Positions 3,876-15,314 of a DNA stretch of 61,616 bases are shown here, piece after piece. A program made the translations under genes and the position numbers. This DNA is from Bacilli bacterium (GTDB lineage Bacteria; Bacillota_I; Bacilli_A; RF39; UBA660), in assembly GCA_016283075.1 (NCBI GenBank), contig JAEEMF010000069.1:1-61616 (forward strand). The letters are read 5' to 3'. The notes below the pieces were generated by a model. That model was not told where the DNA came from. It made no database searches and worked only from the letters and a program-made list of their open reading frames with translations. Every line of letters begins with the position of its first letter. Position 1 is the stretch's first letter.

Positions 3876-3892
3876 AAGAGGATGTGACATCT

Positions 3893-4723
3893 ATGCCTTA
3901 CTACCAAGAATTAATTCCTATAATTAGATATGAAGAAGTAATTGGTTATGAACCAGTAAAGAATCCTGATTCTGTTAAACTAATATATTTTGATCCTAAA
4001 ATATATAAAGATAATAATGGATATAATTTTCATGTTGTTTGGAAAAGAGATGTTGATTTTCAAAAACTGGATGAATCTATAAAAGAAAACCGTAAGAAAA
4101 TTAATAAGGACAGCTTTATATACTTATTACCTTTATCTTTAATAATCATTACTTTCTTTTATATGATTATTGGAAAGGTTTTGAATTTATTAGATACATC
4201 TAATCTATATGATATAATTTTGTATCTATTCGCTATAGCAGATGGTATAACTAGTGCCGCATTAAGGGATGAAATTGTTGGTAAAAGAAAATCACTACTT
4301 ACAAAGCGTAAGCTTAAGTTTATGGATAAGCATCGTGATGAAATAAATAAGATGTATGAAGATGTGTCACTTCTAGGATATAGTACTGATATGTTTAATA
4401 CATATAATAATAGAACTTATCCTTTAAGTAAAGAACATTTCTTAAATGGAGAGAGACTTTTAAATTTATTTGTATTAAATAAAAGATTAAAAAAAATAAC
4501 CAAAAAGAATAAAGATGAAATAGAACATCAAAAAGAACTTCTTTCTAAATTTAAAAAGGTTGAAAAAACTAAAGAAGAAGTAGAAGTACTAGAACTTCCT
4601 AAAGAGAAAGAAGAAATAAAAGAAGAAAATATACTAGATGAAGTAAATGCTATTTTAGATCAGTATAATGTTAGTCCTAGTGATAATACTAATAATTCAA
4701 TAAAAAATTTAATAAAGAAATAA
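3893..4723 (+). CDS. TM-hairpin paralog family protein
   Basis: Motifs INKMYEDV, YPLSKEH, NKDEIEH, EVLELPKEKEE. The ORF track starts at GTG 3884, but that lies only 2 nt after the GAGG, so ATG 3893 is preferred. Start is uncertain. Confidence 0.7.
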   Translation: MPYYQELIPIIRYEEVIGYEPVKNPDSVKLIYFDPKIYKDNNGYNFHVVWKRDVDFQKLDESIKENRKKINKDSFIYLLPLSLIIITFFYMIIGKVLNLLDTSNLYDIILYLFAIADGITSAALRDEIVGKRKSLLTKRKLKFMDKHRDEINKMYEDVSLLGYSTDMFNTYNNRTYPLSKEHFLNGERLLNLFVLNKRLKKITKKNKDEIEHQKELLSKFKKVEKTKEEVEVLELPKEKEEIKEENILDEVNAILDQYNVSPSDNTNNSIKNLIKK

Positions 4724-4734
4724 ATGGTGATTTT

Positions 4735-5556
4735 ATGGCGAAAGAAGAATACTATAATTTTTATAATCTTATATATCCTATTGATTATGAAATAGTAAAA
4801 GAAGATGAAAATGATACTATATATAGAGCTTTTGGAATATCTTCTGATAGAAAGAATCCAATAGAATCAGCTATTTTTAGAAAGAATACTTTTCAAGATG
4901 AAAAATATAATAAAGATCAACTAGCAAATAAATTCAATATAATTGAAAGAAACCATAAGAAAGTGATACCATTATGTTTTCATGATATTACTAATGTTTT
5001 ATCATTTTTTATTGGTGGTATATCTTTTGCTTCAATATTTGTATTAATTATTTGGTAAGAAACAATTGGTTTTACAAATCCTCTTTTATTATTTATACCG
5101 TTTATTACTTTTGTAGCTTCTATGCTGAAATGGGATAATTATTTCGATGGAAGACTTGAAATGTCAGGAAAAGGTATTCCAGTTTTTAAACGACTATCAT
5201 TCTATAAGAAATATGCAAAAGAGCTAAATAAACAGTATGAAGAAATAAAGAAACTTGGATTTAATAATTCAATTGACTTTGGAATTAATTTTCCTATAAC
5301 TAAGACAGATATATATTTAGCAGATGATTTAAAAAAATATAAAAAAATAAGAAAAGAATTTAAAAAGATAATAAAAGAACATAAAGAAGAAATAGAATAT
5401 ATTAGATATCAAGATAGTATAAAGAAACCTGAAGTACTAGAACTACCTAATGAAAAAGAAGATATTCTAGGTATAATTAATGAAGTAGAAAATAGATTTA
5501 GTCTTGGAATAGATAATACAAGTACAAATCAAAGAAAAAAATTAATAAAGAAATAA
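4735..5556 (+). pseudogene. TM-hairpin paralog interrupted by one in-frame TAA (5056-5058) between TM1 and TM2
   Basis: ORFs 4735-5058 and 5122-5556 are in the same frame. There is no other stop between them, and the read-through sequence (ETIGFTNPLLLFIPFITFVAS) supplies the missing second TM helix. Confidence 0.7.
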
Positions 5557-5579
5557 AAGGGTGATATTATGGAAGAAAA
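5188..5579 (+). repeat. direct repeat copy 1 (C-terminal half of paralog, intergenic region and next start)
   Basis: Near-identical by eye to 5998-6390 (a handful of substitutions and a 1-nt indel). Confidence 0.85.
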
Positions 5580-6366
5580 AATGGTTGAAAAACATACTAT
5601 TAAAATTCCGATCGATTATGAACTTGTTGATAGTGATAGTTATAAACCTAAAATTAGATTATATGGTATAGATAATGATACTATTAAAAGTGAGTTATTA
5701 TTTAAGAGTGATTTTCGTTGGGATTATAGTTGTTGTGGAGACTTCGGTATGTTAGACTACGACATCAAAAGAAATACAAATGTATTAGAAGAAATAGTTT
5801 CATTTGAAAATACAAATAAAGTATTGTTATCAACAACTTTAATTGGATCAATGATTATTGGGTTAGGTATATTTCTAGGTATTTCTGATGTTACTCTAGT
5901 GGGCTTAATTTCAGCTGGAATTTCTTTAGGTATTTATGGTTTTAATTATGTTTTATATTCCATGGAACGTTTTTACTGTCATGGTACACCAATAATGAAA
6001 CGTTTATCATTCTATAAGAAATATGCAAAAGAGCTAAATAAACAGTATGAAGAAATAAATAAACTTGGATTTAATAATTCAATTGACTTTGGAATTAATT
6101 TTCCTATAACTAAGAAAGATATATATTTAGCAGATGATTTAAAAAAATATAAAAAAATAAGAAAAGAATTTAAAAAGATAATAAAAGAACATAAAGAAGA
6201 AATAGAGTATATTAGATATCAAGATAGTAATAAGAAACCTGAAGTATTAGAACTACCTAATGAAAAAGAAGATATTCTAGGTACTATTAATGAAGTAGAA
6301 AATAGATTTAGTCTTGGAATAGATAACACAAGTACAAATCAAAGAAAAGAATTAATAAAGAAATAA
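5569..6366 (+). CDS. TM-hairpin paralog family protein
   Basis: Motifs LNKQYEEI, FPITKKD, KEHKEEIEY, EVLELPNEKE. Confidence 0.8.
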   Translation: MEEKMVEKHTIKIPIDYELVDSDSYKPKIRLYGIDNDTIKSELLFKSDFRWDYSCCGDFGMLDYDIKRNTNVLEEIVSFENTNKVLLSTTLIGSMIIGLGIFLGISDVTLVGLISAGISLGIYGFNYVLYSMERFYCHGTPIMKRLSFYKKYAKELNKQYEEINKLGFNNSIDFGINFPITKKDIYLADDLKKYKKIRKEFKKIIKEHKEEIEYIRYQDSNKKPEVLELPNEKEDILGTINEVENRFSLGIDNTSTNQRKELIKK

Positions 6367-6390
6367 AAATGGTGATATTATGGAAGAAAA
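5998..6390 (+). repeat. direct repeat copy 2
   Basis: See 5188-5579; the offset is 810-811 bp. Confidence 0.85.
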
Positions 6391-7195
6391 TGAAAAAACA
6401 GTAGTAGATTTTACAATTGATTATCCTATTGACTATGAACTTGTTGAAGGTGAAGGATCTCAACCAAAAATAAGGGTTTTTGGCGTAACTGGCGATAATT
6501 TTAAAAGTGAGTTATTGTTTAAATATAATTTTGAAAATGAATATAATGACCGAGGAGATCTATATAATTTAAATAGTGATATTAAGAAAAATATGAAAAT
6601 TGTTAAAAAATCAGCCGTGAGGGAATTAATAACTTATATATTTTTTCCTCTAATAATCATTGGTTTTGCTACTTTTATTACTGGCTTAATTTCTAATGGT
6701 ATGGTACTAGCTGGTATTACTAGAATTGGTTATTTTTTAATGTGGTCTTCTATTTTGATTAATAATACAAGTAAGTTATTATGTAGAAATAAAGATATTC
6801 TTGGTTTTGGTCTTCCAATACTTCGAAGAAAAAAATTCTATGAGAAAAAAGCTAAAGAACTTAATAAACAGTATGAAGAAATTAATAAACTTGGTTTTAT
6901 TTGTACGATAAATACTGATGTAGACTTTCCTATTAGTAAGAAAGATATTTACTGTACTAAAAGACTTAAAAAGTTTAAAAAGGTAAGTAAAGACTTTAAA
7001 AAGATTATAAAAGAACATAAAGAAGAAATAGAATATATTAGATATCAAGATAGTATTAAAAAACCTGAAGTACTAGAACTTCCTAATGAAAAAGAAGATA
7101 TTCTAGGTACTATTAATGAAGTAGAAAATAGATTTACTCCTTCTTTTACTAGTGAAACTAGTAAAAAACATTTACTTGAAAAGACAATTAGATAA
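6380..7195 (+). CDS. TM-hairpin paralog family protein
   Basis: Motifs LNKQYEEI, FPISKKD, KEHKEEIEY, EVLELPNEKE. Confidence 0.8.
   Translation: MEENEKTVVDFTIDYPIDYELVEGEGSQPKIRVFGVTGDNFKSELLFKYNFENEYNDRGDLYNLNSDIKKNMKIVKKSAVRELITYIFFPLIIIGFATFITGLISNGMVLAGITRIGYFLMWSSILINNTSKLLCRNKDILGFGLPILRRKKFYEKKAKELNKQYEEINKLGFICTINTDVDFPISKKDIYCTKRLKKFKKVSKDFKKIIKEHKEEIEYIRYQDSIKKPEVLELPNEKEDILGTINEVENRFTPSFTSETSKKHLLEKTIR
6995..7136 (+). repeat. third, partial copy of the paralog C-terminal repeat
   Basis: 142 nt nearly identical to 5359-5500. Confidence 0.8.
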
Positions 7196-7206
7196 GTGGT
7201 GATAAT

Positions 7207-8100
7207 ATGATAAATTTTAATGATAAACATGATCTATCTTATGATGAAGTATATGATTTTATAGTTGACTATGAAAAGTTAGATGATAATACTTATAAGA
7301 TTTATTATAGAGACTTTGATTTTTATGATATGGTAAATTATACAATTGTAAAAAATGATGATAATAAGATTAATGAAGATAAAATGGATAGGATGAAAGA
7401 ACGTACTTTATCAAGATGTAGTTATGCTAAGGATAAAAAAAGAAAAGATATCCTTTTCTTTGGTACGTGGCTTTTTATTATAGCTGGTCTAGTTCTAAGT
7501 ACATTTATGCGTTTTCCTGTTTCAAGAAGTATTTTTTTAATTTTAAATAGTACTTATTTGATACGTAGTCATACTGTCCGTAGATCTAAAATAGATGATG
7601 AATATGAAGAATGTGATAGAACACTATTTAAGAAAATAAACTTTACTAATAATAATAGAGAAAATCTTAATAAGATGTATGAGTATATTAGAAGATTAGG
7701 TTTTATCTCAGAACTATTTGAAGGTATAAAGTTTCCTTTAAGTAAGGAAGATACTTTAATAAATATACCTGTAAGTAAACTTAAAAAAATAGAAAAAGAA
7801 GTTAAAAAGATTGTAAAAGAACATAAAGAAGAAATAGATCAGTTTACTATAGAAGATGAACTTGAAAGAGAAAAAGAAAAGTTAAGAAATATAAAACTTC
7901 AAGAAATGGAAGATGAAAAAATGCGTTCTGAAATAAAAGAACTATTAGAGCATCCGGATGAATGGGATACTTCTTCTATGAAAAAAGAGGTAACTAAAGG
8001 TGATATTTTAGATACTATTAAAGAAATTCATAATATGTATTTATATACTCCCGAAACTGAAAATATAGAAAATCCAAAGTCTTTTGGAGCAAAAAAATAA
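7207..8100 (+). CDS. TM-hairpin paralog family protein (longer coiled-coil-like C-terminus)
   Basis: Motifs LNKMYEYI, FPLSKED, KEHKEEID; two hydrophobic helices. Confidence 0.75.
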   Translation: MINFNDKHDLSYDEVYDFIVDYEKLDDNTYKIYYRDFDFYDMVNYTIVKNDDNKINEDKMDRMKERTLSRCSYAKDKKRKDILFFGTWLFIIAGLVLSTFMRFPVSRSIFLILNSTYLIRSHTVRRSKIDDEYEECDRTLFKKINFTNNNRENLNKMYEYIRRLGFISELFEGIKFPLSKEDTLINIPVSKLKKIEKEVKKIVKEHKEEIDQFTIEDELEREKEKLRNIKLQEMEDEKMRSEIKELLEHPDEWDTSSMKKEVTKGDILDTIKEIHNMYLYTPETENIENPKSFGAKK

Positions 8101-13543: not shown

Positions 13544-14125
13544 ATGAAGATAACTTCTGTTGATTTAAAAATAAGTGCAGTTAGACGTAGTCAGTATCCA
13601 ACTGATAACAAACCAGAATTTTTAATGGTAGGTAGATCTAATGTTGGTAAAAGTAGTTTTATTAATACAATTATTAATAGAAAAAATTTTGCTCGTACAT
13701 CTGCAACACCAGGTAAAACTCAAACAATTAACTTTTATTTAGTAAATGATAAGTTTTATTTAGTAGATGCTCCTGGATATGGATATGCTAGTTTAAATAA
13801 AGCTAAAACTAAAAAATTTGGTTTAATGATGGAAGATTATTTAACATCAAGAACTAATCTAAAACAAGTATTTATGTTAATAGATTTTAGACATAAACCA
13901 ACTAGTGATGATATCATGATGTACAACTATTTAAAGTATTATAAATTACCAGTTACTATTATTGCTACTAAAGTAGATAAAATAGGTGTAACAATGCAAC
14001 AAAAACAACGTAAGATGATACTTGATGAATTAGATCTTGTTGTAGGGGATGAATTTGTATTATTCTCTAATGTTACTAAACTAGGTAAAGAAGATATAAC
14101 TAAAAAAATTGAAAGAATACTATAA
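13544..14125 (+). CDS. engB: ribosome-biogenesis GTPase YsxC/EngB
   Basis: G1 GRSNVGKSS, G3 DAPGYG, G4 TKVDK; typical size. Confidence 0.9.
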   Translation: MKITSVDLKISAVRRSQYPTDNKPEFLMVGRSNVGKSSFINTIINRKNFARTSATPGKTQTINFYLVNDKFYLVDAPGYGYASLNKAKTKKFGLMMEDYLTSRTNLKQVFMLIDFRHKPTSDDIMMYNYLKYYKLPVTIIATKVDKIGVTMQQKQRKMILDELDLVVGDEFVLFSNVTKLGKEDITKKIERIL

Positions 14126-14137
14126 AGTATTCTTTTT
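14112..14137 (+). terminator. rho-independent terminator after engB
   Basis: AAAGAATAC / GTATTCTTT stem with a T-run. Confidence 0.65.
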
Positions 14138-14140
14138 CAC

Positions 14141-14169
14141 TTGATTAATTATATTATTTATAATAATAT
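14141..14169 (+). promoter_or_regulatory. promoter of candidate antitoxin sRNA copy 1 (TTGATT-17-TAATAT)
   Basis: -35 at 14141-14146, 17-nt spacer, -10 at 14164-14169. Confidence 0.5.
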
Positions 14170-14175
14170 AAATAT

Positions 14176-14244
14176 AGGAATACCTAATTTTCGCATGTTA
14201 GGTGTTACCGTGTGGTAGACCTAACTAACTAGTTAGGTTTTTTT
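14176..14244 (+). ncRNA. candidate antisense small RNA 1 (~69 nt), putative type I antitoxin
   Basis: Start predicted from its own promoter. 5' hairpin ACCUAA...UUAGGU. Terminator CCTAAC-TAACTA-GTTAGG followed by T7 (14238-14244). Convergent with the peptide gene and complementary to the region downstream of it. Confidence 0.5.
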
Positions 14245-14245
14245 G

Positions 14246-14329
14246 TTATTTCATCATCATTATTATGATTGATAATAGGATGAAGATGATAACTACTAAA
14301 GAAGAGATTAAAAAATCTTTTTTAGTCAT
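14246..14329 (-). CDS. 27-aa hydrophobic peptide MTKKDFLISSLVVIIFILLSIIIMMMK, candidate type I toxin (copy 1)
   Basis: GGAGGTGG lies 4 nt upstream of the ATG. Single TM-like helix with N-terminal KK and C-terminal K. Copy 2 encodes an identical peptide with one synonymous change. Below the ORF-track size cutoff. Confidence 0.55.
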   Translation of the reverse strand: MTKKDFLISSLVVIIFILLSIIIMMMK

Positions 14330-14444
14330 AGTACCACCTCCCTTCGAAGATAACACCTAACATTTAGATACTCCTACATTAATATGATACGAGAAAACTT
14401 TCCCATATCCTTTTTTTATACTTAATTTTTTTATTATAGTTATC

Positions 14445-14472
14445 TTGACATATATAACTAATATGATATTAT
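14445..14472 (+). promoter_or_regulatory. promoter of candidate antitoxin sRNA copy 2 (TTGACA-16-TGaTATTAT)
   Basis: -35 at 14445-14450, extended TG at 14464-14465, -10 at 14467-14472. The predicted start maps to the same repeat position as in copy 1. Confidence 0.55.
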
Positions 14473-14478
14473 GAATAT

Positions 14479-14547
14479 AGGAATACCTAATTTTCGTAGG
14501 TTAGGTGTTACCGTTTGGGAACCCTAACTAACTAGTTAGGTTTTTTT
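14479..14547 (+). ncRNA. candidate antisense small RNA 2
   Basis: Same architecture as copy 1, with terminator T-run at 14541-14547. Confidence 0.5.
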
Positions 14548-14548
14548 G

Positions 14549-14632
14549 TTATTTCATCATCATTATTATGATTGATAATAGGATGAAGATGATAACTACT
14601 AAAGAAGAAATTAAAAAATCTTTTTTAGTCAT
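14549..14632 (-). CDS. 27-aa hydrophobic peptide, candidate type I toxin (copy 2)
   Basis: Same peptide and same GGAGGTGG RBS as copy 1. Confidence 0.55.
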   Translation of the reverse strand: MTKKDFLISSLVVIIFILLSIIIMMMK

Positions 14633-14774
14633 AGTACCACCTCCCTTCGAAGATAACACCTAACATTTAGATACTCCTACATTAATATGATACGGCAAAA
14701 CCTTCTCATATCCTTTTTTATTATAAATATTTTGAAATTATGGTAAAATGAAAGTGTTATTTGTAGGAGGATTT

Positions 14775-15314
14775 ATGAAAATAGTATATTATGTACATGG
14801 TACTACTTATGATAATGCTTCTAAGAAATGTAGTGGTCATAAAGATGTAGAGTTAAATGATTTAGGTAAGGAGCAAGCTATTAATTTAGGAAAGAATACT
14901 CCATATAAATTTGATGTTCTTTTTACTTCAGATTTAAAAAGAGCAATTACTTCTAGTGAGTTAGCATTTCCTTTATATAGTTCCATACCTGATAGTAGAT
15001 TAAGAGAATGTAATTATGGGGATTTTGACGGAGAGGATAAGAGTTTAGTTGTATATGAAGAACACGTGGATACTCCTTTTCCAAACGGAGAATCTTTAAA
15101 AGATGTTGAAAAAAGAGTTAGAGATTTCTTAAAAGAAATATATGATAAATATAAGGATAAAACCATTGGAATAATAGCTCATAGAGCGCCTCAGCTTGCT
15201 ATAGAAGTTATTACTAAACATATTACCTGGGAAGAAGCTAATAAGAATGACTGGAGAAAAACAGGTTCTTGGCAACCAGGATGGGAGTATACTCTAAATA
15301 AAGAAGATTTATAA
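14775..15314 (+). CDS. histidine phosphatase (phosphoglycerate mutase-like) family protein
   Basis: N-terminal YVHGTTYDN (RHG-like motif, with V replacing R) and distal AHRAP His motif. AGGAGG lies 5 nt before ATG 14775, so the ORF-track start at 14748 is probably an extension. Confidence 0.7.
   Translation: MKIVYYVHGTTYDNASKKCSGHKDVELNDLGKEQAINLGKNTPYKFDVLFTSDLKRAITSSELAFPLYSSIPDSRLRECNYGDFDGEDKSLVVYEEHVDTPFPNGESLKDVEKRVRDFLKEIYDKYKDKTIGIIAHRAPQLAIEVITKHITWEEANKNDWRKTGSWQPGWEYTLNKEDL

Follow-up and report, generated by a model that had tools for sequence, protein, structure and literature searches.

A tandemly duplicated candidate type I toxin-antitoxin-like module next to engB in an uncultured gut Bacilli bacterium

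In an uncultured gut bacterium with very AT-rich DNA, two near-identical units stand in tandem between two housekeeping genes, and they raise the question of whether such a segment holds a gene system, a repeat element or a regulatory leader. We examined them in a 61,616-nt (61.6-kb) stretch of one contig (the window). A preliminary description of this DNA had reported units of about 250 bp at a 303-bp period, and the geometry holds: the direct repeats, 258 nt each, have 14 mismatches (95% identity) and a period of 303 nt, with a 45-nt spacer that belongs to the duplicated segment.

14159-14416: unit 1
14462-14719: unit 2

[quoted passage not shown] In our judgement each 258-nt unit is probably a self-contained type I toxin-antitoxin-like module, a reading supported by the agreement of all in-silico tests run. 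From its sequence it most likely represents a new, uncatalogued family of a known kind of RNA-controlled module.

The preliminary description placed a strong Shine-Dalgarno sequence (SD) and a 27-codon ORF on the minus strand of each unit, and both are present in both units. The SD reads GGAGGTGG (plus-strand positions 14334-14341 and 14637-14644) and lies 7 nt from the ATG.

14246-14329, minus strand (read 14329 to 14246): peptide ORF 1, candidate toxin gene; 27 codons plus stop, encoding MTKKDFLISSLVVIIFILLSIIIMMMK with a single predicted transmembrane (TM) helix
14549-14632, minus strand (read 14632 to 14549): peptide ORF 2, encoding the identical peptide
14330-14357, minus strand: SD 1, GGAGGUGG (plus strand 14334-14341), within a hairpin

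The 27-aa peptide is strongly hydrophobic (GRAVY 1.85; best 19-residue window 3.17), as are the known peptides of 27, 31 and 32 aa taken together (GRAVY 1.7-1.85; 19-residue window 3.2-3.4). A 31-aa plus-strand ORF antisense to it (14265-14360) was rejected, given that it has no SD, its start is not kept in the diverged a-type units described below and its codon-position pattern is less coding-like. A charged or bulky C-terminal tail is common among type I toxins. In the present peptide the C terminus is a single Lys or QK(TPN/NA), little of such a tail, which counts against the toxin reading. It also speaks for another explanation, a small membrane-protein gene with a cis-antisense regulator in which a benign 27-32-aa peptide, for example a transporter or sensor modulator, has its level tuned by antisense RNA and mRNA structure. 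The anatomical evidence is the same for both readings, and many small hydrophobic Gram-positive proteins are reported not to be toxins (PMC10730256). Yet the gene is isolated, has no partner gene and is read in the direction opposite to 45 of the 47 long ORFs; with the further points given below, we regard a benign membrane protein as rather unlikely.

Is the peptide itself under selection? The preliminary description noted that the two copies encode identical peptides and differ by one synonymous change, from which it argued for selection. The observation stands: the change, at 14306/14609, is the only one of the 14 differences between the units that falls inside the ORF. The argument is weak, because gene conversion accounts for the identity. 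Unit 1 joins a promoter that is 100% the 'a-type' allele of other strains to a 'b-type' body, and for this reason the identity of the two peptides can be attributed mainly, on sequence grounds, to recent gene conversion. The stronger evidence of selection comes instead from the diverged a-type paralogue; units of other strains code for the variants MTKKDLLISVLIIFIFILLSLLFIVLIQKTPN and MTKKDLLITVLIFFIFILLSLLFIVLIQKNA. Decay of the ORF in homologous repeats had been named in advance as one outcome that would speak against the type I reading; what we find is an a-type ORF, SD and start codon that are intact, with residues still hydrophobic, despite 67-68% nucleotide identity to the b-type ORF (94% for SD plus spacer, 88-90% for the 5'UTR arm and 97-100% for the 5' hairpin described below). 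The 26 ORF substitutions between the types fall 10/2/14 at codon positions 1/2/3 (chi-square p = 0.013) and T occupies position 2 in 19-21 codons, so the substitutions spare the position that preserves hydrophobicity. The peptide sequence evolves fast with only its hydrophobicity kept, a pattern that fits a membrane-damaging peptide better than one with a specific protein partner, and that weighs against the benign membrane protein.

About six copies of the unit are known, all from one species. None of 80 relatives searched has the module next to engB, and in the approximately 45 related species without it the next gene begins 33-50 nt after engB. By this comparison the module is an insertion apparently private to one species. 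It lies in a strain-variable interval that in one strain contains an IS30-like transposase. Tandem duplication and insertion in one species only both run counter to a benign membrane protein and support the type I reading, since both are hallmarks used in finding such loci (PMC2887945).

The same features could describe a miniature mobile or recombinogenic repeat (a MITE or intergenic repeat), whose terminal inverted repeats would have been taken for RNA pairing and in which ORF, SD and promoter motifs would be incidental. In its favour, the pairing arms lie near both ends of the 258-nt repeat, and the duplicated unit borders variable genes in an interval prone to recombination, the one with that transposase. 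However, copies occur at this locus only, both in the window and in every related contig recovered, and the MITE signature of many dispersed copies, terminal inverted repeats and target-site duplications was not found in the window, related contigs or large collections. Exact-pattern scans gave 0 matches in 185,579 species genomes and 0 in viral contigs, and blastn of the DNA found none in phages and one 33-nt AT-rich chance match in plasmids. The 33 metagenome-contig loci retrieved with inverted 11-mers (JGI) all proved, by nhmmer and by eye, to be unrelated heptamer-repeat or palindromic elements. The spacer was duplicated as well, as expected from unequal crossing-over; the G-U pairs of the arms work only on the minus strand, whose folds are 17-19 kcal/mol more stable; and the ORF has a codon-position bias. 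We therefore consider a repeat element improbable. Since the type I loci ldr and ibs/sib are themselves repeated within single intergenic regions, and ibs-sib was first noticed as a repeat (PMC2887945, PMC4147584), the two readings are not exclusive.

Searches with the peptide were equally negative. The ORF is absent from every protein collection searched. A word search of 5.8 billion proteins, using an alignment of three GTG-extended ORFs, gave 0 matches, and the sole match in a full HMMER scan of 1.84 billion representatives (P0001) was rejected as a spurious repetitive translation. In Pfam and NCBIfam only noise below threshold appeared, to SecE, to EssA and to a baculovirus family; PDB sequences had no match to the peptide, and tblastn against plasmids and phages found none. 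In Rfam the units had no match at E < 0.2 (the best, with E 0.21 and 0.44, were to unrelated families and fell far short of gathering scores), and nothing in the whole window reached the gathering threshold.

The plus strand of each unit is predicted to encode a small RNA convergent with the peptide gene.

14141-14169, plus strand: predicted promoter of small RNA 1; -35 TTGATT (14141-14146), 17-nt spacer, -10 TAATAT (14164-14169)
14445-14472, plus strand: predicted promoter of small RNA 2; TTGACA-16-TATTAT with TG extension, 11/12 matches
14176-14245, plus strand: small RNA 1, candidate antitoxin, ~70 nt, with HP1, HP2 and terminator hairpin
14182-14187/14198-14203, plus strand: stems of HP1 of small RNA 1, with loop UUUUCGCAUG at 14188-14197
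14205-14218, plus strand: HP2 of small RNA 1, the second, variable hairpin
14217-14240, plus strand: terminator of small RNA 1 (hairpin 14220-14237), then U7 at 14238-14244
14479-14548, plus strand: small RNA 2, ~70 nt (z -4.2)
14523-14540, plus strand: terminator of small RNA 2, then T7

One promoter per unit with a matching start point had been proposed, and we recover this: the -10 box sits at the same position in both units even though the -35 regions lack homology. Hexamers resembling promoters are by themselves no commoner than chance predicts for DNA of 26% GC (5 found vs 8.5 expected), so the weight of the call rests on the spacing, which is conserved together with the -10 position in six unit copies. 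Two intrinsic terminators were found vs 0.2 expected in shuffles. Their T-runs stop 1-2 nt short of the opposite-strand stop codon, in line with the earlier view of a terminator abutting that codon; the RNA length is corrected from ~69 to about 70 nt (14176 to ~14245). Small RNA 1 folds at -25 kcal/mol (z -4.65; small RNAs overall, z -3.9 to -5.9), with the HP1 loop unpaired in the ensemble. Six positions separate small RNA 2 from small RNA 1: the HP1 loop holds two of them, HP2 three, and the last is at the terminator hairpin's base. The differences between the units as a whole also concentrate in the HP1 loop and HP2. The small RNA does not overlap the ORF in b-type units, whereas in a-type units the overlap is 4-5 codons. 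A second plus-strand terminator (14386-14417), which would give a long antisense RNA, was rejected as the main reading because its hairpin is weak on that strand (-2.3 kcal/mol).

Lying directly upstream of a histidine-phosphatase gene and in the same direction, these plus-strand elements could also be a cis-regulatory leader or attenuator whose promoter-terminator pairs control read-through into that gene. We hold this to be very improbable. In L001 the unit precedes an unrelated 178-aa gene, and in the window only another unit follows unit 1; there is no Rfam family match; the second hairpin and T-run at 14386-14417 are as weak as stated above; and a leader leaves the conserved minus-strand SD and ORF, and the minus-strand-specific G-U pairs, unexplained.

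The type I reading places the peptide on a short, highly structured mRNA, for which the following elements are predicted.

near 14408-14413, minus strand: predicted start of mRNA 1, downstream of a TATAAA-like -10 at 14415-14420 (weak assignment)
14386-14409, minus strand: 5' hairpin of mRNA 1, 10 bp, GAUAUGGGAA-AGUU-UUCUCGUAUC
14349-14380, minus strand: 5'UTR arm of the long-distance interaction, unit 1, containing the 13-mer AUGUUAGGUGUUA (plus strand 14351-14363)
14171-14209, minus strand: 3'UTR arm of the long-distance interaction, unit 1; complement of the 5' half of small RNA 1
14689-14747, minus strand: 5' hairpin of mRNA 2 (14689-14712, degenerate, two broken pairs) and promoter-like site
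14747-14720, minus strand: promoter-like site of mRNA 2, TTTACC-16-TATAAT; predicted start ~14713
14633-14683, minus strand: SD 2 (14637-14644), SD hairpin and 5'UTR arm of unit 2 (14652-14683)
14474-14512, minus strand: 3'UTR arm of the long-distance interaction, unit 2 (predicted fold)
14114-14137, U-runs on both strands: engB terminator hairpin, AGAAUACU-AUAA-AGUAUUCU

The promoter of this mRNA appears weak or ambiguous in such AT-rich DNA. No canonical minus-strand terminator directly follows either small-RNA region; the 3' end is therefore assumed, and both the overlap with the small RNA and the long-range pairing depend on it. Minus-strand transcripts of unit 1, and any read-through from unit 2, may end at the engB terminator. 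With these predicted ends the mRNA would be about 250-310 nt long and, with its small hydrophobic TM peptide, falls within the type I ranges of 20-60 aa and 150-400 nt.

Predicted folding is stronger on the minus strand, whose transcripts reach -73.8 to -83.5 kcal/mol (z -7.4 to -9.4), compared with -62 to -66 kcal/mol (z -4.5 to -6.4) for the plus strand of the same region. The 5' hairpin is minus-strand-specific, with -10.8 kcal/mol (z -5.6) vs -2.3 on the plus strand. The SD hairpin has a minimal stem CUUC-GAAG-GGAG (14338-14349), extends to 12 bp when folded in isolation and scores -9.9 kcal/mol (z -3.4); the a-type version, CUCC-GAAA-GGAG, reaches -12.7 kcal/mol. In the predicted folds the SD is unpaired with a probability of 0.01-0.11, so that by prediction this is a highly structured mRNA with a sequestered SD, as expected of a type I toxin. 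The 5'UTR and 3'UTR are predicted to pair over ~30 bp, with 30/30 pairs kept in 6 sequences and one-sided A-U/G-U exchanges at four; no base pair shows a double compensatory change among the ~6 unit copies of the one species. Within the 3'UTR arm a 9-nt internal loop, AUGCGAAAA, is complementary to the HP1 loop of the small RNA and has P(unpaired) 0.66-0.85, and fold prediction makes both loops accessible. Layered silencing of this kind, in which a hairpin around the SD is joined by the 30-bp lock and by an RNA of full complementarity made from a near-consensus promoter, is typical where a product must not be made, which again weighs against the benign membrane protein.

Complementarity of the small RNA to the mRNA holds only if the mRNA extends at least 70 nt past the stop codon; the conserved 5'-3' pairing argues, at the level of predicted folds, that it does. 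Since the small RNA terminates at the stop codon, it would be perfectly complementary to such a 3'UTR, which is the 3' arm of the long helix, and its 5' half is therefore a near-copy of the mRNA 5'UTR, in the same and not the complementary sense. The 13-mer AUGUUAGGUGUUA, shared in the same sense by small RNA and mRNA, has 4 matches at one mismatch vs 0.22 expected. In thermodynamic modelling, SD accessibility is unchanged with the 3'UTR occupied or the 3' arm removed, so a translational effect of the small RNA is unsupported. We do not claim an SR4-like lengthening of the SD stem on small RNA binding: once the 3'UTR is blocked, global folding favours other local structures.

Comparison with known systems refines the type I reading. 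The preliminary description likened the locus to txpA/RatA, bsrG/SR4 and the Enterococcus par/fst locus. The first two likenesses stand for layout, without sequence homology; the third fails for want of a bidirectional terminator and of complementarity to the initiation region. As in Bacillus subtilis txpA/RatA and bsrG/SR4 (also bsrE/SR5 and yonT/SR6), a hydrophobic-peptide gene converges with an antisense RNA on the 3' side of its mRNA; as in the first two, complementarity is predicted to involve the 3' part of the mRNA and not the ribosome-binding site, and the SD is predicted to lie in a stem. Those Gram-positive 3'-overlapping antitoxins form an extended duplex with RNase III-initiated decay, and SR4 also induces a change at the ribosome-binding site (PMC4147584, PMC8594479). 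Unlike TxpA/RatA and BsrE-G-H/SR, the module has no similarity by Rfam, Pfam, NCBIfam or sequence to any of them. Its small RNA is ~70 nt rather than 100-220 nt, its peptide 27-32 aa rather than 38-59 aa, its b-type small RNA lacks the ORF overlap of the Bacillus systems, and it sits in a core housekeeping interval instead of a prophage or skin element. A further difference from txpA/RatA and bsrG/SR4 is that the target here is pre-occupied by ~30-bp pairing with the mRNA's own 5'UTR; we know of no description of this for those systems.

Like par of Enterococcus faecalis pAD1 (Fst, RNA I / RNA II) and the Fst/Ldr group, the module is convergent and has an antitoxin RNA of about 66-70 nt and a TM peptide of ~30 aa; the predicted 5' stem-loop and sequestered SD of the mRNA also have counterparts in the par toxin mRNA, and chromosomal homologues of par likewise occur in tandem (PMC4147584, PMC2887945). 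In par, however, one bidirectional terminator serves both RNAs, and the translation-initiation region of RNA I is the pairing target of DRa/DRb in RNA II. In the present module the hairpin at 14220-14237 has U7 on the plus strand only, its minus-strand follow-on being CUACCACACGG, and the duplex of the small RNA with mRNA nt 1-110 (-26.9 kcal/mol) is no better than the shuffle mean of -26.4 (p = 0.43), so DRa/DRb-type pairing was not detected. Nor did Pfam, NCBIfam or the PDB chains give a match to an Fst/Ldr-family toxin.

The predicted ~30-bp 5'-3' lock of the full-length mRNA in 6 sequences instead resembles hok/sok (plasmid R1) and aapA1/IsoA1 (Helicobacter pylori), Gram-negative systems unrelated to the module in sequence. 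There the lock hides the SD and makes for a compact, stable RNA, and antisense recognition starts via exposed loops (PMC5416894). The antisense RNA of those systems targets the 5' region, and only after 3' trimming frees the lock, whereas here it lies at the 3' end and targets the 3' arm of the lock itself, and removing that arm in silico leaves the SD hidden. The Escherichia coli pairs Ibs/Sib, Ldr/Rdl and Zor/Orz share with the module very small TM peptides (19-35 aa), tandem arrangement within one intergenic region and strain-variable presence (PMC2887945, PMC4147584), but their antisense RNAs overlap the ORF and ribosome-binding site or diverge at the 5' end, and there is no homology.

How might such a module work? 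The presumed toxin, a 27-aa membrane peptide with a single helix, would be encoded by a minus-strand mRNA whose structure favours silence: it would be capped by a 5' stem-loop and closed into a circle by the ~30-bp 5'UTR-3'UTR pairing, and the SD hairpin would stack on the long 5'-3' helix. From its strong promoter, the plus strand would give the ~70-nt small RNA ending at the peptide stop codon. The HP1 loop (UUUUCGC...) would first contact the complementary 9-nt internal loop, single-stranded within the long helix of the mRNA; pairing would then extend and displace the 5'UTR to yield a ~70-bp duplex. RNase III would presumably cut this duplex and the mRNA would decay as in txpA/RatA and bsrG/SR4, with the SD sequestered throughout. 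Once the small RNA is lost, some of the stable mRNA would eventually be translated and the peptide would damage the membrane.

We tentatively propose, as a possibility we hold with much less confidence than the type I reading itself, that the antitoxin is a mimic of the toxin mRNA's own 5'UTR that competes for the 3'UTR. The lock would then be the antitoxin's target, a logic undescribed for type I systems, and a closed, nuclease-resistant, long-lived mRNA would be turned into an open one that carries a ~70-bp RNase III substrate, with the fast-evolving HP1 loop and HP2 as specificity determinants that keep the copies orthogonal. Orthogonality of the tandem copies is suggested by the loop differences only.

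Such loci are almost unexplored in uncultured gut Bacillota. At about 260 nt, this one is a compact candidate with clear boundaries; the RNA architecture predicted for it is directly testable, and it joins two principles so far described in separate families, the 5'-3' mRNA lock and the 3'-overlapping antisense RNA. If confirmed, it would provide a new family for covariance-model and peptide searches, a case of small-RNA/UTR 'mimicry' for studies of RNA mechanism and a marker of the engB-der interval, which is prone to recombination in this lineage. Even if the peptide is non-toxic, the locus would still be a clear case of antisense control over a hidden small membrane-protein gene. If the mimicry reading is true, the module would represent a new family that combines the 'lock' strategy of hok/aapA1 with the '3'-antisense' strategy of Bacillus, in an uncultured lineage of reduced-genome gut Bacillota.

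The 622-nt gap between engB and a histidine-phosphatase gene holds two direct repeats (units 1 and 2), each with a peptide ORF on the minus strand and a predicted small RNA on the plus strand:

13544-14125: engB, an MMR_HSR1 GTPase gene bordering the gap
14775-15314: histidine-phosphatase gene, bordering the gap on the other side
14159-14416 and 14462-14719: direct repeats of 258 nt each, 95% identical, at 303-nt spacing
14329 to 14246 and 14632 to 14549, minus strand: peptide ORFs, one per repeat, both encoding MTKKDFLISSLVVIIFILLSIIIMMMK
14217-14240 and 14523-14540, plus strand: intrinsic terminators, each followed by T7
Ahead of the terminator in unit 1, plus strand: promoter-like site TTGATT-17-TAATAT
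Ahead of the terminator in unit 2, plus strand: promoter-like site TTGACA-16-TG-TATTAT
14176 to ~14245 (unit 1) and 14479 to ~14548 (unit 2), plus strand: predicted small RNA of ~70 nt

The preliminary description, of ~250-bp units at a 303-bp period, each with a strong Shine-Dalgarno (SD) sequence, a 27-codon minus-strand ORF, its own plus-strand promoter giving a common start and a terminator at the peptide stop that ends a ~69-nt RNA, is therefore accurate. The SD, GGAGGUGG, lies 7 nt ahead of the AUG, the -10 box has an identical within-unit position in both units (the -35 regions are non-homologous), and the terminator T-run ends 1-2 nt short of the opposite-strand peptide stop codon. Two plus-strand intrinsic terminators were found vs 0.2 expected from shuffles. 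Window-wide, the plus strand carries 45 of the 47 ORFs that reach 150 aa; the two peptide ORFs thus oppose the prevailing direction. GC content is 24-30% over most of the window, and a search of all 61.6 kb against Rfam returned nothing at the gathering score, be it tRNA, rRNA, riboswitch or leader. Elsewhere, 3884-8100 carries a tandem array of five paralogous membrane-protein genes (about 265-297 aa, mutual identity 28-56%) with recurring 21-nt A-rich repeats; one copy, at about 4777-5553, sits in an apparent 845-nt 'gap'.

The engB-adjacent unit has a second, diverged allele, a-type (the window unit bodies being b-type), in contigs L001, L002 and L003 of other strains of the species; it is ~81% identical overall to the window units and encodes MTKKDLLISVLIIFIFILLSLLFIVLIQKTPN or MTKKDLLITVLIFFIFILLSLLFIVLIQKNA. 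Identity between the alleles is 67-68% in the ORF, 94% in the SD and spacer, 88-90% in the 5'UTR arm, 97-100% in the 5' hairpin and 89-90% in the small-RNA region. Frameshifts or non-synonymous drift in related strains had previously been named as evidence against the interpretation; with 26 substitutions over 27 codons, the a-type ORF nevertheless keeps an unbroken frame, start codon and SD, and its hydrophobicity. Substitutions at codon positions 1/2/3 number 10/2/14 (chi-square p = 0.013) and 19-21 codons retain T as their second base, so that hydrophobic residues are swapped for hydrophobic ones. A transmembrane peptide would be expected to evolve in this way if selected for hydrophobicity and not for exact sequence. 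The identity of the two window peptides, which had been taken to argue for selection, is weaker evidence than was supposed. Unit 1 is a chimera, with a small-RNA promoter 100% identical to a-type (14141-14175 vs L002:704-738) and a b-type body like that of unit 2, a sign that the tandem copies underwent gene conversion recently. Even so, units 1 and 2 differ at 14 positions and just one of these lies within the ORF.

A minus-strand transcript over each unit is predicted to fold at -73.8 to -83.5 kcal/mol (z vs shuffles -7.4 to -9.4), more stably than its plus-strand counterpart (z -4.5 to -6.4, at -62 to -66 kcal/mol). The consensus fold of the minus-strand RNA has four elements, three of them as follows:

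14386-14409, minus strand: 5' hairpin of 10 bp
14349-14380 (5'UTR) with 14171-14209 (3'UTR), minus strand: long-distance interaction of 17 + 13 bp
14338-14349, minus strand: SD hairpin stacked on the long helix, CUUC-GAAG-GGAG in the window units

In the fourth, the SD pairs alternatively with a pyrimidine-rich stretch within the ORF, and no predicted state leaves the SD unpaired (P(unpaired) 0.01-0.11). The 5' hairpin is stable only on the minus strand (-10.8 vs -2.3 kcal/mol). All 30 pairs of the long-distance interaction are retained in six sequences, four via A-U/G-U exchange, for example AG vs GA opposite UU. Its core is the perfect 13-mer ATGTTAGGTGTTA, which at one mismatch or fewer occurs four times in the window, always inside the units, vs 0.22 expected. 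The a-type SD hairpin (L002:899-910) is CUCC-GAAA-GGAG; a U-to-C change makes a G-U pair G-C and the loop is a GNRA-type GAAA tetraloop rather than GAAG, hence it is ~3 kcal/mol more stable. The model is least secure at the promoter and the 3' end of the mRNA. A convincing promoter was found in unit 2 only (TTTACC-16-TATAAT, in AT-rich DNA), and no canonical minus-strand terminator was found past the small-RNA region; the nearest candidate for minus-strand module transcripts could be the bidirectional engB terminator hairpin at 14114-14137, which overlaps the stop codon of engB and carries a U-run on either strand.

The predicted small RNA (fold z -3.9 to -5.9) forms three hairpins: HP1 (stems ACCUAA/UUAGGU, loop UUUUCGCAUG), HP2 and the terminator. 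Its antisense target would be the long mRNA helix, in its 3' arm, and its 5' half is thus a near-copy of the mRNA 5'UTR: AUAGGAAUACCUAA-UUUUCGC-AUGUUAGGUGUUACC in the small RNA vs GUAGGAGUAUCUAA joined directly to AUGUUAGGUGUUAUC in the 5'UTR. The HP1 loop consists of the 7-9 additional nucleotides, whose complement is a 9-nt internal loop in the mRNA helix. In the predicted folds both loops are single-stranded (P(unpaired) about 0.9 over most of the HP1 loop, 0.66-0.85 in the internal loop), which makes them an obvious first-contact site. Complementarity of the small RNA to the translation-initiation region is no better than chance. The small RNA accounts for six of the 14 differing positions: the HP1 loop has two and HP2 three, and the last is at the foot of the terminator hairpin. 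The HP2 3' arm differs between alleles with pairing to a fixed GUUACC maintained, and the HP1 loop and HP2 are the fastest-changing small-RNA parts across strains, which would fit specificity determinants.

The closest EngB homologues among 185,579 species genomes are 62-89% identical and come from uncultured gut MAGs labelled Bacillota, Bacilli, Tenericutes, Erysipelotrichaceae or Clostridium sp. CAG:594; none of them carries the module 4 kb or less from engB. Among the 14 closest species inspected (L004-L017, about 4580-5100), most have the next called gene (about 140-170 aa) 33-50 nt past engB, with der after it. A few have a ~500-nt apparent gap there that looks coding from a non-ATG start, and none of the 14 carries the module. 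Among these genomes the module is thus an insertion private to the species of the window. Further copies came from contigs with an identical EngB, phosphatase or Der protein. L002 has two units and, past the phosphatase gene, two extra genes (L002:1958-3339); L001 has one unit and then an extra 178-aa gene (L001:3954-4490), which encodes a signal/TM segment and matches nothing in Pfam; in L003 and L117, from one assembly, two units flank a homologue of that gene (L117:3-413); and L118:3-476 encodes an IS30-like transposase immediately upstream of der. The engB-der interval is thus a hotspot that varies by strain. Given that the genes behind the unit differ by strain, a plus-strand leader of the phosphatase gene is unlikely. 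A MITE-like repeat is also unlikely, since the module occupies one locus, no copies were found in any collection searched, its G-U pairs are strand-specific and the ORF has codon-position bias. An inverted-11-mer pattern search caught by chance a near-perfect ~150-bp palindrome family bounded by TTATTGGTTAGGTGTTAAT...ATTAACACCTAACCAATAA (metagenome contigs L089, L098, L099, L105, L110, L111 and L116) and inverted arrays of the heptamer GGTGTTA; neither is related to the module, and both look like MITE-type or hairpin elements.

The module resembles a type I toxin-antitoxin pair, of the '3'-overlap' kind known from Gram-positive bacteria. The proposed likeness to txpA/RatA and bsrG/SR4 (PMC8594479) holds for layout, with no homology to this class in Rfam, Pfam or NCBIfam. 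That to Enterococcus par/fst does not hold for the features that define par/fst, as the bidirectional terminator, the DRa/DRb-type initiation-region pairing and an Fst-family peptide are missing. The predicted 5'-3' lock resembles those of hok and aapA1 (PMC5416894), but their antisense RNA hits the 5' region after 3' trimming, whereas here the small RNA would hit the 3' arm of the lock. Tandem duplication in one intergenic region and strain-variable presence are shared with ibs/sib, ldr/rdl and zor/orz (PMC2887945).

In the mechanism we propose, the peptide mRNA would be produced closed, stable and translationally silent. Abundant small RNA would invade its 3'UTR, beginning at the loop/internal-loop contact, and oust the 5'UTR to give a ~70-bp duplex (predicted energy near -129 kcal/mol), which RNase III would be expected to cleave, leading to mRNA decay. 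Such cleavage and decay have been shown for txpA/RatA and bsrG/SR4 (PMC4147584). Tightening of the SD stem on small-RNA binding, as by SR4, found no support in silico: the isolated SD segment can fold into a 12-bp SD hairpin, but global folds show no preference for it and SD accessibility is unchanged.

As far as sequence analysis reaches, the toxin-antitoxin interpretation is supported. A true toxin-antitoxin pair is somewhat favoured, and a functional small peptide gene with a cis-antisense small RNA is more probable still; a benign small membrane protein under such antisense control is less likely. The module is best regarded as a new family, orphan to date, within a known kind of system. 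What would set it apart is that the predicted target of the antitoxin and the 5'-3' lock of the mRNA coincide.
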